Source of the DNA: Escherichia coli
Lineage (GTDB): Bacteria > Pseudomonadota > Gammaproteobacteria > Enterobacterales > Enterobacteriaceae
Length of the DNA stretch: 64,000 bases
Strand: one strand, 5' to 3'
Assembly: GCF_003334765.1 (NCBI RefSeq)
Contig: NZ_QOWT01000009.1
Both the position numbers and the translations under genes were made by a program. Of this stretch, positions 37,146-43,118 are shown piece by piece. The first letter of the stretch is position 1, and the number at the start of each line of letters is the position of its first letter. The notes under the pieces are model-generated. The model worked only from the letters and a program-made list of their open reading frames with translations. It was not told the origin of the DNA and did no database searches.

Positions 37146-39242
37146 TTAGCGGAAATTGACGCTACGGTCGCTGGTCATGTCATACAACTGGAACTTACGC
37201 CCAAGTTGCTGACCACCGTCACGCGTCAGCGGCGTCCAGCCAATCGCCGCACGGCTGCGTGTCGGGCCAGACGAGAAGAGATCCAACGGTACCGAGACAT
37301 ACACGCCTTTGGTGAAGTCCCCTTCGCCGTACTCCTCTTTCGAAACATTAGTGATCGTGGCATAGCCACCCACCACCACGCCGCTATCAAAGCGTTTGGC
37401 GATCTCCAGCGTGCCGCCTTTATCCCCTGCCAGATACTGCCCGACGCTGGCTTTAACTAACACATCCTGAGCGAAAGATGGCGTCCAGTAGGCGGTCAGA
37501 TGTCCGGTTTTCACGCTGTAGTCGGTGAATTTCATCATATCTTTTGCACTACGCCAGTCGCGCTGTTTAACGTAGTTGGCATCCAGACCAAACGCCCAGT
37601 TGCTGTCCAGCGGGCGATACAACACTTCTGCCCCCGCACCGCCAAACATGGTTTCGAGATAACCACCGTAGACCTGACCGTAGAAGCCGTTGCCCAGATG
37701 CTGGAAGTAGTTGGCTTGCAGGTTATTCACATAGACATCGTTCTGCACATACTCGCGCACATGGGTACGCACGCGCGGTAAGTGCGAGTCCTGCGGAGGA
37801 TTAGTGTAGTTAAACTTGTCGTAGTTGTTGGCAAGATTTGCAAACAGGCTGCCGGTGGTCAGCAGATGGTCCGTCAGCCACAAATCTGCCGTTCCCATCA
37901 CGCCCAGCTGATACATGTAAAAGTTTTCCGGGCCACCGACCGACTGGTTCAGCACCGGATCGATATGGAAATCAAAGCGTGATTTGTCGATATACCAGCC
38001 CTGCTCGGTGGACTGCGGAACCACTGGCTCGACGCGTTTTTGCGCCAGCGTCGTTTCGTGGCCCAACGGCTCTCCGGCGAGATGATTTTTCAGGCTGGCG
38101 ACATCGGTTTCCGTCGTCACCTGCGGCATGTTAAGGCGATTTTCCGTAATGCGGATCGTTTTGATCCCATCCGGCAGATCGTTCATCACGATCCGATTCG
38201 CACGGATGATCCCTTCGCGCGAATCACGATATTTCACCTGCTCGCCGGTAACATACAGCGTATCGCCTTTCGCCTGGATCTGTGGATCGGCAAGTCCGGC
38301 ATTGTATTTCAACAGCGTTAACTGATTCGCCACCACCGAATGCTGCAAAATGGCATCCTGCGGCTGCGGTTGATATTGCGGGCGGGCGTTATCGTTGTAA
38401 GACGGGCGCAGATCGTTAAAGTTGGTGCGCAACGTAACGCCAAACATAAAGGTGTTGCCACGTTCATAGCTAAGGTTAACGTCGGCCCAATCGGTAACGC
38501 GATAAATCGCACCGACGTTAAACTTACTTTTTTGCTCCAGCTTCCCGGCAAAATCCTGCTGATAATTATTGCCTTCATACTCCAGTTTCAGGCGCAGCGG
38601 TTGCCAGGGCGTCTGGTATTCCACGCCGCCAAACAGTGAGGCAGGACCGTGGAACATCTGGCTACCGTCGATAGATCCCGCCTGTTTGTAGCTGTTATCG
38701 CGATAGCAATATTTATCACTGGCTGAACAGAGCGGATTTTTCACATTACCGCTGGTGCCCAAATATCCCCAGCCCAGGCCGAGCGTAAAATCGAACGGCC
38801 CCCAGGCTTTGCTGGCAACAAGATATTCCGCATCAAACAGCCCCGTACCGCCGATATCCCGCGCACCAACCGCCACTTGCGGCAGCCAGTAACTCTCTTC
38901 CCACAAACGCAGTTTGAGATCGAAGGCTTTATCTTTATACGTTTGATCGCCAGAGAACGCTTCGACGCTGCTGTACTGCCGGGTGCGCACGTCGGTGTAG
39001 CGCAGCGTTGTTTCCAGCCACGGGAAGAGTTGCACTGAAGCTGAGTAATAACGGTACTGATCGTTATCGCGATAGTTCAGACTCAACTCCCCTTCCCGTG
39101 CCATACGCGCGGTGGGCGTTTGTAATAATCCTACGCCACCGAAATCCGACTGCGACGGACCAATGGGCGCAGGATATGTTTCGCCGTAGCAAGCTGTGCT
39201 AATGCCCAGCGCCAGTAAGCTAAGCAGATGTCTTTTTTTCAT
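37146..39242 (-). CDS. yjbH: outer-membrane-associated protein of the yjbEFGH exopolysaccharide locus (698 aa)
   Basis: Track ORF 698 aa [26 protein letters not shown]..., signal peptide; ends in aromatic residue (...SVNFR region). Confidence 0.9.
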
Positions 39243-39979
39243 TATTGAGGTATCCGCTGCGTCAGAGTCTGAAGAATGTCGGCGTTAAGGGCATCAGGCG
39301 TCTCACTCCAGACGGAGTCCGCGAGGCCAACATAAATAATGCTGCCGGGCATCGGCTCTACGTGACGCTTGTTCCAGTAAGCCACCGGCGCTTTTTGCGT
39401 GCGTCCGTCCGGGTAAACCACCCACGCGTAGCTGCGATCCGCACCGCTGAGCAGGCTCTGGTCAGAGAGATAGCTCGCCACGTCGCGACCTGGAGTGAAT
39501 GGCTGCTTGCCAGGACGGCTGATAAGCCCGAACAACGTGACCGTGGACGGCGGTGGTCCGACCCACAGCGTGTAGTTGCCCTGCAACGGCGGGTTACCGC
39601 GTTCGGCAACGCGGACGATATCGGGATCAAGATTGATTTTTTGCCTGCCCGTCACTTTCAACGCCTGAATTTGCTGGCGTAAGGCGTTAATCGCAGCGGC
39701 ATCGTCGGCGCTGGAATCTGCGCCCTGTTCTGCCAGCCGTGTCAGCAACGCCTGCTGCTGACGCAATGCTGCCGCCGTTGCCAGCTCTTCGCTAATCACC
39801 GCACCGGGCCACCAGCTGTTTGCCAGCCGCGGTTGGCCTACCAGATCGATTAAATGCTCTGCGCCCGTTAGCGTTTTGGCCTCACTGCTGCCATTGCTGA
39901 ACACCTTGACGGTTCCTGCCGCGAAGACCGATGACGCTCCCACACTCAAAAGCAACGCGACAATAGTTTGTTTAATCAT
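39242..39979 (-). CDS. yjbG: periplasmic protein of the yjbEFGH locus (245 aa)
   Basis: ATG at 39979 inside track ORF 39242..40075 (which starts at TTG) gives [23 protein letters not shown]...; ATGA start/stop overlap with yjbF. Confidence 0.88.
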
Positions 39980-40614
39980 TGTTTTGCCGCCTTGATGAGA
40001 GTGGTTTTCACCGGAAAATAATCCGCGCCGAGATACTGTTCCGACTGGCGAATTTGCCCTTCGCTGTCGATCCAATAGCGGTTATGCCAGCGCGCCTGGT
40101 CGGTGGAGACTTCTTCGTCCAGCACGCGAACCGGGGTTTCATCGCTGCCGACTTTGACGGTATCGGTGCCATCCCATTTGAAGACTGAGCGTGCGGTGGC
40201 GTAGCGTACCTGCTGGTACTCGGTCCAGCCCATCGTGCGCGTCCAGCTTGCGCCATCAACGATTTGTGCGGGTTTAATCAGCGGGTCGGCAGCAAGGTTA
40301 TTCACTTCAATCAGGTTGTCGCCGCCGAGCAGAGTCTTCACCAGACGGCCATGTTGGGTAACGAGAGTAGCCTGATCCTGAGTGACCCATTTTTGTTGTC
40401 CGTCTTCAGCGAAGGCCAGCACCACAAATAACTGCGGCCCGCCATTAAGCTGCATGTACTGGCTGGCGTAGGGCATATTTTGAATATCATCATCCGTCAG
40501 CTGTACGCCTGGCGTGCCGAACAGACTGTCCCACAGTGAATTGCCCAGCTCTTTAGTCGTGGCTGAACAGGCCTGTAATAACAGGCAGATAAGAATGAGT
40601 GCAGGTCGCTTCAC
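39976..40614 (-). CDS. yjbF: lipoprotein of the yjbEFGH locus (212 aa), GTG start
   Basis: Track ORF 39976..40644; GTG at 40614 with GGAG SD gives (M)KRPALILICLLLQACSATT, lipobox LLQAC. Confidence 0.85.
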   Translation of the reverse strand: MKRPALILICLLLQACSATTKELGNSLWDSLFGTPGVQLTDDDIQNMPYASQYMQLNGGPQLFVVLAFAEDGQQKWVTQDQATLVTQHGRLVKTLLGGDNLIEVNNLAADPLIKPAQIVDGASWTRTMGWTEYQQVRYATARSVFKWDGTDTVKVGSDETPVRVLDEEVSTDQARWHNRYWIDSEGQIRQSEQYLGADYFPVKTTLIKAAKQ

Positions 40615-40727
40615 GACTCTTCTCCAGAGGGGCAGAATAACCACACCGGAGTGTGGTTATGGTTAATCCCTTCATACTTCTAGCCACAGATGCAATGACT
40701 CGAATTATTTTGGGGATACATACTTTA

Positions 40728-40970
40728 TTACTGGGTACTGGTGGTCGTGGTTGTGGTGGTCCCGGTATTAGAACCATCACCGCCACCGGTTGCCGCAAGC
40801 GCGACACCCACCGCCGAGCTTACGGTGCTGACGCTGGTCGCGGAGGAACTCCCCGCCGAAACCGACGTTGCTGCCGACCCTGCCGCTTCGCCCACCTGTA
40901 CAGGTGCAGCCCACGCAGAAGTCGCCGCAAGCGCAGATATGGCAAAAATGCCATACAGAACTTTTTTCAT
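40728..40970 (-). CDS. yjbE: small secreted Ser/Thr/Ala/Gly-rich protein (80 aa)
   Basis: Track ORF 80 aa [21 protein letters not shown]... ending in a poly-Thr tract [11 protein letters not shown]. Confidence 0.85.
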
Positions 40971-41378
40971 AACAATTTCCCTTCATTGAATGAATGGAGA
41001 TTTACCCAAAAACATTTCGGGCGGGATCGAGTATACACAACTAAAGCATGCGAATTACGGCGCGGGGAATTAGCGATGGCGTTTTAGGATAATTGGAATG
41101 AATATCAAATATAAGTTTCAACTTATATTTAAATAACAATAAAAATCATAAACTTAAAATAAAAACAAAAGCAATTAATCTGCGTATTTTCCGAAATAAA
41201 CAACGATTAAAAATCTATTTTAGGATTAACCTCATGGTATGATTTCCGTTAAATCACAGACAAGGGAATTTATCTGATAAAAAAATGCCGACATAACGTC
41301 GGCATTGTTATTAAGGTTATTTAATCAATCGTGCTATGTATTAATTGCCGAATACGATGTACATATCGGCATCGACCT

Positions 41379-41455
41379 GTAGGCCTGATAAGACGCGACC
41401 GCGTCGCATCAGGCATCGGTTGCCGGATGCGGCGTGAACGCCTTATCCGGCCTAC
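41379..41455. repeat. BIME / REP pair between pgi and yjbE
   Basis: gtaggcctgataagacgcgaccgcgtcgcatcaggc ... gccggatgcggcgtgaacgccttatccggcctac. Confidence 0.9.
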
Positions 41456-41468
41456 ATATCGACGATGA

Positions 41469-43118
41469 TTAACCGCGCCACGCTTTATAGCGGTTAATCA
41501 GACCATTGGTCGAGCTATCGTGGCTGCTGATTTCTTTATCATCTTTCAGCTCTGGCAGAATACGGTTCGCCAGCTGTTTACCCAGTTCCACGCCCCACTG
41601 GTCGAAGGTGAAGATGTTCAGGATCACGCCCTGAGTAAAGATTTTGTGCTCATACAGCGCAATCAACGCACCCAGGCTGAACGGAGTGATTTCACGCAGC
41701 AGGATGGAGTTGGTCGGGCGGTTACCTTCGAATACTTTGAACGGCACCACGTAGTCAAGCGTTGCCGGATCTTTACCCTGATCACGATATTCCTGCTCAA
41801 CCACTTCGCGGGATTTACCAAACGCCAGCGCTTCGGTCTGGGCGAAGAAGTTAGACAGCAGTTTCTGGTGATGATCAGAGAGCGGGTTATGGGTGATAGC
41901 CGGAGCGATGAAATCGCACGGTACCATTTTGGTTCCCTGGTGGATCAGCTGGTAGAACGCGTGCTGACCGTTAGTGCCTGGTTCACCCCAGATAATCGGG
42001 CCAGTCTGGTAATCCACAACGTTACCGTTACGGTCAACATACTTACCGTTGGACTCCATATTGCCCTGCTGGAAGTACGCCGCGAAACGGTGCATATACT
42101 GGTCATACGGCAGAATCGCTTCAGTTTCCGCACCAAAGAAATTGTTGTACCAGATGCCAATCAGCGCCAGCAGTACAGGCAGGTTTTTCTCGGCAGGCGT
42201 GGTGGAGAAATGCTTGTCCATCGCGTGTGCGCCGGAAAGCAGTTCAACGAAGTTATCAAAGCCGATGGAGAGAACAATCGACAGGCCAATCGCTGACCAC
42301 AAAGAGTAACGGCCGCCAACCCAGTCCCAGAACTCGAACATGTTGGCAGTATCAATACCAAACTCGCCAACGGCTTTGGCATTGGTGGAAAGCGCCGCAA
42401 AGTGTTTTGCAACGTGTTTTTCATCACCTGCCGCTTTCAGGAACCAGTCACGCGCGCTATGGGCGTTGGTCATAGTTTCCTGAGTGGTGAAGGTTTTAGA
42501 TGCTACCAGGAACAGCGTGGTTTCCGGGTTTACTTTTTTCAGCACTTCCGCGATGTGAGTCCCATCGACGTTAGAAACAAAGTGCATGTTCAGGTGGTTT
42601 TTGTACGGACGCAGAGCTTCGGTCACCATGTATGGGCCGAGGTCAGAACCGCCGATCCCGATGTTCACTACGTCAGTGATTGCTTTGCCGGTATAACCTT
42701 TCCACTCACCGGAAATAATCGCTTCTGAGAAGGTTTTCATCTTCTCCAGCACCGCGTTGACTTCCGGCATTACGTCTTTGCCATCAACCAAAATCGGGGT
42801 ATTGCTACGGTTACGCAGCGCTACGTGCAGCACGGCGCGGTTTTCAGTGCGGTTGATCTTCTCGCCAGAGAACATCGACTTAATCGCGCCCGCCAGATCG
42901 CACTCTTTCGCCAGATCCTGTAATTTCGCCAGCGTCTCTTCAGTGATGCGGTTTTTGGAGTAATCCACCAGCATCTGATCGTCGAAGGTTGCGGAGAACT
43001 TAGAAAAACGATCGCCGTCTTTAGCAAAAAGATCGGCGATCGTAACGTCTTTCATTTCATCGAAGTGTTTCTGTAGTGCCTGCCAGGCAGCGGTCTGCGT
43101 TGGATTGATGTTTTTCAT
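41469..43118 (-). CDS. pgi: glucose-6-phosphate isomerase (549 aa)
   Basis: Track ORF 41469..43124 starts at TTG; ATG at 43118 gives [25 protein letters not shown]... Confidence 0.98.

Follow-up and report, generated by a model that had tools for sequence, protein, structure and literature searches.

The window analysed here is a stretch of 64,000 nucleotides of Escherichia coli DNA (RefSeq assembly GCF_003334765.1, contig NZ_QOWT01000009.1). In its list of open reading frames (ORFs), four co-directional frames on the minus strand span positions 37146-40970 and correspond to yjbE, yjbF, yjbG and yjbH. Very probably the locus is the ordinary yjbEFGH operon of E. coli, that is, a core-genome, Rcs-activated paralogue of gfcABCD. 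The genes are:

40728-40970, minus strand: yjbE, 80 amino acids (Pfam YjbE, PF11106, E = 5.5e-33; RefSeq annotation; orthologue alignment).
39976-40614, minus strand: yjbF, GTG start, 212 amino acids, lipobox LLQAC (Pfam YjbF, PF11102, E = 8.6e-64); an outer-membrane lipoprotein and GfcB paralogue (PDB 2IN5, YmcC/GfcB, E = 3e-43; Pfam description 'group 4 capsule polysaccharide lipoprotein GfcB, YjbF').
39242-39979, minus strand: yjbG, ATG at 39979, 245 amino acids with a signal peptide (Pfam GfcC_N, PF20616, and GfcC_C, PF06251); a periplasmic GfcC-family protein (PDB 3P42, GfcC, E = 2e-55).
37146-39242, minus strand: yjbH, 698 amino acids (Pfam PF06082, E = 1.3e-270).

Pfam places each protein in a family of its own, with E values from 1e-33 to 1e-270. 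Because of these matches, the near-universal presence of the locus in E. coli and its synteny in 80 species, the ORFs are real genes and not chance frames. The stretch from 36800 to 41500 is 100% identical at the nucleotide level to several complete E. coli genomes, and the identical sequence in strain H3 is annotated by RefSeq as yjbE, yjbF, yjbG and yjbH. Of the 5426 complete E. coli genomes, 5414 carry at least 80% of this stretch; identity to it is 99% or more in 1335 records and 95-99% in 4103. The window is E. coli chromosome and the yjbEFGH allele that it carries is one common allele. RefSeq places pgi on one side of the operon and a gene for a small 'periplasmic protein', psiE and xylE on the other. 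Conservation was followed in 80 orthologous loci, one per Enterobacteriaceae species, and the order pgi-yjbEFGH is kept in all 80, with psiE downstream in most.

The preliminary description had spoken of co-directional genes with tight or overlapping junctions. Read on the minus strand, the stop of yjbF and the start of yjbG form CAATGATT, a 4-nt ATGA overlap (...AAA CAA TGA over ATG ATT), while the stop of yjbG and the start of yjbH form TAATG, a 1-nt overlap (...CAA TAA over ATG AAA), so that the description holds for these two junctions. It makes no mention of the junction of yjbE and yjbF, which are not tightly joined but separated by 113 nt that include a strong hairpin. For yjbF the ORF list takes a GTG at 40644 as the start and RefSeq a GTG at 40614, the latter giving the 212-residue protein beginning MKRPALILICLLLQAC. 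The K-12 operon (b4026-b4029), which also lies between pgi and psiE, has the same genes, order and overlaps, and shows no substantive difference from the locus in the window. That operon is said, in papers that cite it, to have been described by Ferrieres and colleagues in 2007 (PMID 17379715). The operon, the paralogy with gfcABCD, the Rcs control and the link to exopolysaccharide are all already known: the first three were published from 2005-2007 onward and a two-barrel model for YjbH and GfcD from 2021.

The gene order of K-12 gfcABCD is that of yjbEFGH, with 4-nt and 1-nt overlaps likewise, and the genes are of similar length (306, 645, 747 and 2097 nt for gfcA to gfcD against 243, 639, 738 and 2097 nt for yjbE to yjbH). 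When the proteins were compared by BLASTP with those of the K-12 gfc locus, YjbF was 39% identical to GfcB (E = 2e-54), YjbG 42% identical to GfcC (E = 2e-67) and YjbH 65% identical to GfcD over 696 residues, both of the latter being 698 amino acids long. For these three pairs the proposed paralogy, which has also been published, is clear. The first pair is different. YjbE finds no detectable match to GfcA by BLASTP (E = 65), GfcA does not match the Pfam YjbE model, and when an alignment of 16 YjbE sequences was compared by hhalign with one of four GfcA-type sequences the signal peptides alone aligned; the search for GfcA homologues returned mostly Escherichia variants and frameshifted fragments and was too shallow for a good profile. 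What YjbE and GfcA have in common is their position as first gene, small size, a signal peptide ending A-x-A/AP, a mature part rich in Thr, Ser, Ala, Gly and Val, and a C-terminal tail composed of a hydrophobic A/V/G/L stretch, GDG and a Thr run ending in Q or R, which in GfcA reads LAVVAANDSGDGGSHNTSTTTSTTR. Over the last 35 residues the similarity stands at z = 5.5 above composition-preserving shuffles (0 of 2000 reached it). A distant F-G-H locus (L086) that encodes a YjbH homologue of 50% identity is preceded by a small ORF with the C-terminal sequence ...GGDGDGTSASATSTATTTATSTTTSTTR. On this evidence homology between YjbE and GfcA is probable but not demonstrated, and for this pair the paralogy claimed earlier is weakly supported, by position, composition and tail.

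The signal peptide of YjbE ends AWA/AP and leaves a mature protein of 59 residues (22% T, 20% S, 19% A and 15% G). Its C-terminal half, which ends in Q or R, hardly varies among 69 distinct orthologues. Each of the four proteins has an export signal, and three of them are similar to periplasmic or outer-membrane proteins whose fold is known. The earlier assignment of a Thr-rich secreted protein, a lipoprotein, a periplasmic protein and a large outer-membrane protein holds.

Downstream of yjbH lie a convergent small gene and then psiE. The gfcE-etp-etk genes (of wza-wzb-wzc type) do not follow yjbH here or in the 80 species. With this half absent, yjbEFGH is not itself a capsule operon but the paralogue of one part of the group-4 capsule operon, its accessory module. 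Whereas gfc handles the O-antigen capsule, yjb is part of the core genome and Rcs-regulated; the literature assigns the requirement for the O-antigen capsule to gfc and not to yjb.

Published work reports that yjb is activated in a manner dependent on RcsA and RcsB, and that it is induced under envelope stress, under osmotic stress and in mutants that activate Rcs; the link to Rcs-dependent exopolysaccharide given in the preliminary description is likewise stated there. The search for an RcsB box upstream of yjbE, which had been suggested as a check, found a conserved RcsAB-type box. The features of this region are:

41221-41234, minus strand: RcsAB-type box TGAGGTTAATCCTA, 264-251 nt upstream of the yjbE ATG.
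41284-41306, minus strand: intrinsic terminator of pgi, a 10-bp stem and T-run called by the terminator scan; the upstream boundary of the yjbE regulatory region.
41082-41090, minus strand: second copy of ATCCTAAAA, repeating the right half of the box; possible RcsB half-site.
41030-41035, minus strand: candidate -10 hexamer TATACT, found at -80 to -45 in 70 of 72 species.
40971-41040, minus strand: near-invariant leader, the 70 nt directly upstream of yjbE, including the ribosome-binding site AAGGGA (footprint of 72 species).

The box has one mismatch to the published RcsB box TN(G/A)GAN4TC(T/C)NA (PMC7913699) and, on the other strand, fits exactly the lower-affinity variant TN(G/A)GAN4(A/C)CTNA. 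It also matches 10 of the 14 positions of the RcsAB consensus TaAGaatatTCctA (quoted in PMC4325325 and PMC12388358), including all six core positions given in capital letters. The strict RcsAB consensus TAAGAATATTCCTA, at up to three mismatches, is not found in the pgi-yjbE spacer and occurs seven times in the window where 3.7 are expected. A motif match alone means little, and the box counts as evidence because of its conservation. In the footprint, made from 72 aligned upstream regions of Enterobacteriaceae species, the core T.AG.....TC..A lies at -285 to -246 in 69 of the 72; the remaining positions differ, so that 23 distinct 14-mers occur. Outside -285 to -250 the core is matched at only nine of 21,163 positions, six of these being the same site shifted by a few bases. 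Since the core is kept while the intervening positions change, the pattern is that expected of a real operator, and we predict the site to be an RcsAB-type operator.

The footprint contains a further conserved island, TTT.GGA, at about -226 to -220. The 9-mer ATCCTAAAA occurs at 41218-41226, in the right half of the box, and again some 135 nt downstream; the window has three copies where 0.5 would be expected. The second copy is partly conserved (exact 8-mer in 20 of 72 species) and might be an RcsB half-site nearer to the promoter. A simple sigma-70 scan called no minus-strand promoter upstream of yjbE. The idea that the 70-nt leader is structured was dropped, as its predicted fold is no better than that of shuffled sequences (z = -0.65). 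On the plus strand, antisense to the yjbE upstream region, positions 41167-41316 match the Rfam family STnc430 with 72 bits (gathering score 47). Within STnc430, the unpaired segment with the highest conservation coincides with the RcsAB-type box, and the 3' hairpin corresponds to the pgi terminator on the other strand; this family of small RNAs may simply reflect a conserved operator and a bidirectional terminator.

Within the 113-nt spacer that follows yjbE lies the one feature for which no description was found in the papers searched; apart from it, the window holds nothing new about the locus:

40637-40660, minus strand: intercistronic RNA hairpin between yjbE and yjbF, AUAACCACAC-UCCG-GUGUGGUUAU followed by a U-rich tail; single copy.

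Folding of the spacer gives the hairpin a perfect 10-bp stem and -14.2 kcal/mol. In all 77 species from which a spacer could be extracted TAACCACAC-N4-GTGTGGTTA is invariant, while the flanks and the length of the spacer (60-119 nt) vary. As their loop, 68 species have UUCG, six UGCG, two UCCG and one CUCG, so that 76 of the 77 have a C(UNCG)G tetraloop. After the stem comes UU(U), the tail being UUAUUCUG in E. coli and, in most species, UUAUUUUG. Rfam has no family for this hairpin, no mention of it was found in the searchable literature, and a simple terminator scan did not call it. The hairpin of gfcABCD likewise follows the first gene, gfcA, though its sequence is unrelated.

A dispersed repeat of the repetitive extragenic palindromic (REP) type is rejected, as the hairpin occurs once per E. 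coli genome and once in the window. Elsewhere in the spacer, at 40664-40723, a weak match to Rfam isrH was dismissed at 16 bits against a threshold of 45. The hairpin is a candidate for a partial terminator or a structure protecting the 3' end, and as such may raise the level of the yjbE message over that of yjbFGH. Colicin M co-induces all four genes (log2 5.7, 5.7, 4.3 and 5.2), and because they are induced together any termination at the hairpin would be at most partial. The alternative is a sequence-specific site for a protein or one acting at the level of DNA, and it is kept as an alternative because the stem shows no compensatory changes.

In several species of Citrobacter and Enterobacter (loci L006, L012, L015, L020, L024, L031 and L005) some 50 extra nucleotides lie downstream of the hairpin and contain a GC-rich palindrome of the REP kind, GGCCGGGTAAGCG...CCCGGC, while in Escherichia some 50 extra nucleotides lie upstream of it. 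These are independent insertions around an untouched hairpin.

The largest protein of the operon was modelled with AlphaFold2 from 44 aligned full-length family members of 34-65% identity. The model of YjbH (mean predicted local distance difference test score 88.9, predicted template modelling score 0.87) has three parts: strands at about 52-274, an alpha/beta domain at about 301-388 and a second block of strands at about 423-669. YjbH is thus predicted to consist of two beta-barrels joined by a periplasmic domain, the N-terminal barrel being of the 12-strand type. The model reproduces the architecture proposed in published work, with an N-terminal barrel of FapF type, a C-terminal barrel like that of PgaA and a periplasmic domain (PMC8346858, PMC9603273); for GfcD a 13-strand C-terminal barrel with a lateral gate has been modelled (PMC11494523). 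A sequence search of the PDB gave no match to YjbH, no solved structure matches the whole protein, and Foldseek with the whole chain returned generic barrels only. In the comparison of barrels the sugar porins KdgM and NanC are as good a match to the N-terminal barrel as FapF. Exopolysaccharide porins also appear in the comparison, ranking next, with PelB at 10.3, PgaA at 9.7 and BcsC at 9.6. All of these, the amyloid exporter FapF, the 12-strand sugar porins KdgM and NanC and the polysaccharide porins PgaA, PelB and BcsC, are only 7-13% identical in sequence to YjbH and are single-barrel proteins, lacking its chain of two barrels and a periplasmic domain.

YjbH belongs to a family of 2661 clusters (50% identity, E at most 1e-3) among 1.84 billion cluster representatives, described as the largest multi-barrel outer-membrane family (PMC8346858). 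Many members reach 930-1400 amino acids through N-terminal extensions of about 250-350 residues (for example P0003, P0005, P0006, P0032 and P0055). The wbfDCB and orf1-wbfDCB loci of Vibrio, gfcABCD of Aeromonas and OtnG-type loci of Burkholderia are homologous F-G-H modules tied to the export of capsule or exopolysaccharide; such relatives are about 35-50% identical to the Yjb proteins and many have longer YjbH homologues. In the distant loci that we sampled, the F, G and H genes likewise stand in this order; wzb, wzc or OPX genes are frequent neighbours, and some of the loci lack the small first gene. The YjbH homologue adjoins wzb-wzc in two of them (L087, L090) and enzymes for uridine diphosphate sugars in a third (L089), while in a fourth (L088, 1647-4928) an OPX (Poly_export-SLBB) protein fused to GfcC domains lies directly upstream. 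GfcC and OPX-type modules are thus seen both fused and separate in loci of the family. It is through neighbours of this kind, wzb, wzc, OPX and sugar-nucleotide genes, that the YjbH family is linked to polysaccharide export.

In the four Yjb proteins neither Pfam nor NCBIfam finds a glycosyltransferase, polymerase, flippase or sugar-nucleotide enzyme domain, and NCBIfam has no family match at all for YjbE, YjbF, YjbG, YjbH, YjbT or GfcA. Because domains for synthesis are missing the operon would not make a polymer, and it would seem likely that YjbFGH form an outer-membrane module for the export or anchoring of a polymer made elsewhere. YjbH would sit in the outer membrane, and a glycan would probably pass through its C-terminal barrel, which resembles those of PgaA, PelB and BcsC and would act as conduit or lateral gate; the lipoprotein YjbF and the Wza-like periplasmic YjbG would dock on its periplasmic domain. 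YjbE may be a substrate, carrier or surface anchor, perhaps using the N-terminal FapF/KdgM-like barrel. The gene overlaps would couple the translation of yjbF, yjbG and yjbH, and the hairpin after yjbE probably lets its message exceed that of yjbFGH, which would fit a need for YjbE in excess. In the paralogous system GfcB-GfcC binds GfcD, an outer-membrane protein, and GfcD has been suggested as a possible exit route for the Ser/Thr-rich GfcA, which might also undergo modification (PMC8592465). Papers citing the original work state that overexpression of yjbEFGH gives more extracellular polysaccharide, and in Salmonella a wza yjb double mutant shows neither the RcsA-induced rise in uronic acid and fucose nor mucoidy.

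Several points weigh against this reading. Loss-of-function lesions in yjb (yjbE +9 bp, single-nucleotide changes in yjbG and yjbH, yjbH +8 bp, and IS1 insertions in yjbF or in the spacer before it) lead to mucoidy and overproduction of colanic acid, not to loss of polysaccharide. Because they cause mucoidy, breakage of the apparatus appears to be perceived as envelope stress. Jamming by a substrate that is not exported would be compatible with this, although the phenotype does not count as evidence for jamming, and the main observable effect of the operon may be indirect, through Rcs signalling. The literature gives no chemical definition of a Yjb polymer, and next to the operon K-12-type strains carry no genes dedicated to synthesis. 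No protein of the YjbH/GfcD family has a solved structure, the roles given to the barrels come from models, and the export of YjbE is a proposal. On the regulatory side, a looser RcsB motif is not enriched in the window (41 matches, 60 expected), and the box is placed relative to the yjbE ATG and not to a transcription start.

A related possibility starts from the GfcD model, in which a lipid-anchored glycan would be inserted into the outer leaflet through the lateral gate of the 13-strand C-terminal barrel, so that YjbH would anchor its polymer and not release it. The molecular dynamics of GfcD (PMC11494523) are in its favour, as are the full-length identity of 65% between YjbH and GfcD and the same domain layout in our model, and mutations in yjb alter the retention of colanic acid on cells, seen as resistance to sedimentation. 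On the other hand, the proposal is purely computational for GfcD and is carried to YjbH by analogy, the count of 13 strands and the open seam come from the GfcD model and not from that of YjbH, and the reported Yjb product was recovered as extracellular polysaccharide. Taken together, anchoring by this route is possible, though we would not call it probable.

The near-invariance of the C-terminal half of YjbE, despite its low complexity, raises the question whether YjbEFGH is instead a system for the secretion or display of a protein. Here YjbE, possibly glycosylated or fibre-forming, would leave the cell through the FapF-like barrel of YjbH with YjbF and YjbG as chaperone or adaptor, and the polysaccharide phenotypes would be secondary. 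The tail of hydrophobic residues, GDG and a Thr run ending in R or Q recurs in GfcA and in the distant small ORF, the hairpin placed right after yjbE resembles the layout of fibre operons with the major subunit followed by the machinery, and an IS1 insertion that separates yjbE from yjbFGH activates an Rcs-type response, as would fit jamming of the envelope by unexported YjbE. Against this, surface exposure or secretion of YjbE is so far only proposed, there are distant F-G-H loci without a small upstream gene, the sugar porins KdgM and NanC fit the N-terminal barrel as well as FapF, and family members elsewhere stand among polysaccharide genes. We regard protein secretion as doubtful.

A more specific version, which we consider unlikely, would make YjbE the stoichiometrically dominant product, an exported Ser/Thr-rich surface peptide and possibly a glycan carrier or anchor, with YjbFGH as its two-barrel export machine and the hairpin setting a high ratio of YjbE to machinery by partial termination or protection of the 3' end. 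If true, it would explain the Rcs stress response that follows when lesions uncouple yjbE from yjbFGH. That yjbEFGH is a self-contained operon for exopolysaccharide biosynthesis, as the Pfam and RefSeq names ('exopolysaccharide biosynthesis/production protein') and the effect reported for overexpression in the citing papers might suggest, is contradicted by domain content, none of the four proteins matching a glycosyltransferase, polymerase, flippase or sugar-nucleotide enzyme family, all of them bearing export signals with three like periplasmic or outer-membrane proteins of known fold, and the flanks being pgi and psiE and not sugar genes, so that it is hardly credible.

As the preliminary description had stated, the mechanism is poorly defined: both the substrate and the mechanism of the family are still undefined in the literature. 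The question of what YjbH and GfcD carry and what the small Thr-rich protein does is a real one, to which the window adds just the hairpin and the YjbE tail. The YjbH/GfcD family is very widespread and matters in general, though the finding itself adds nothing new; its by-products, the footprinted RcsAB-type box, the near-invariant YjbE tail and the invariant yjbE-yjbF hairpin, could be useful for the design of experiments.

Mutations in yjb arise repeatedly under selection, for example in predation and sedimentation experiments, and laboratory-evolved strains carry IS1 between yjbE and yjbF or within yjbF (PMC8117528). Among natural E. coli genomes, FDAARGOS_1248 (L083, 4704-5401, at about position 41283 of the window) and PM7 also have an IS1, which immediately follows the pgi terminator and so precedes the RcsAB-type box. 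The yjb locus seems to be a recurrent target of IS1.

A REP-type element lies on either side of the operon. The one at 41382-41452, just downstream of pgi, matches Rfam naRNA4 with 79.5 bits, and the one at 36686-36778, downstream of psiE, is a weak match (29 bits). The latter is overlapped by a 47-residue 'hypothetical protein' annotated by RefSeq at 36677-36820 on the minus strand, which looks spurious. Convergent with yjbH, on the plus strand at 36821-37099, is the gene for the 92-residue 'periplasmic protein', which we take to be yjbT-like. Among the 80 species it was found at the Escherichia locus only, apart from one 50%-identical match in Kluyvera, a distribution that points to a lineage-restricted insertion between yjbH and psiE.

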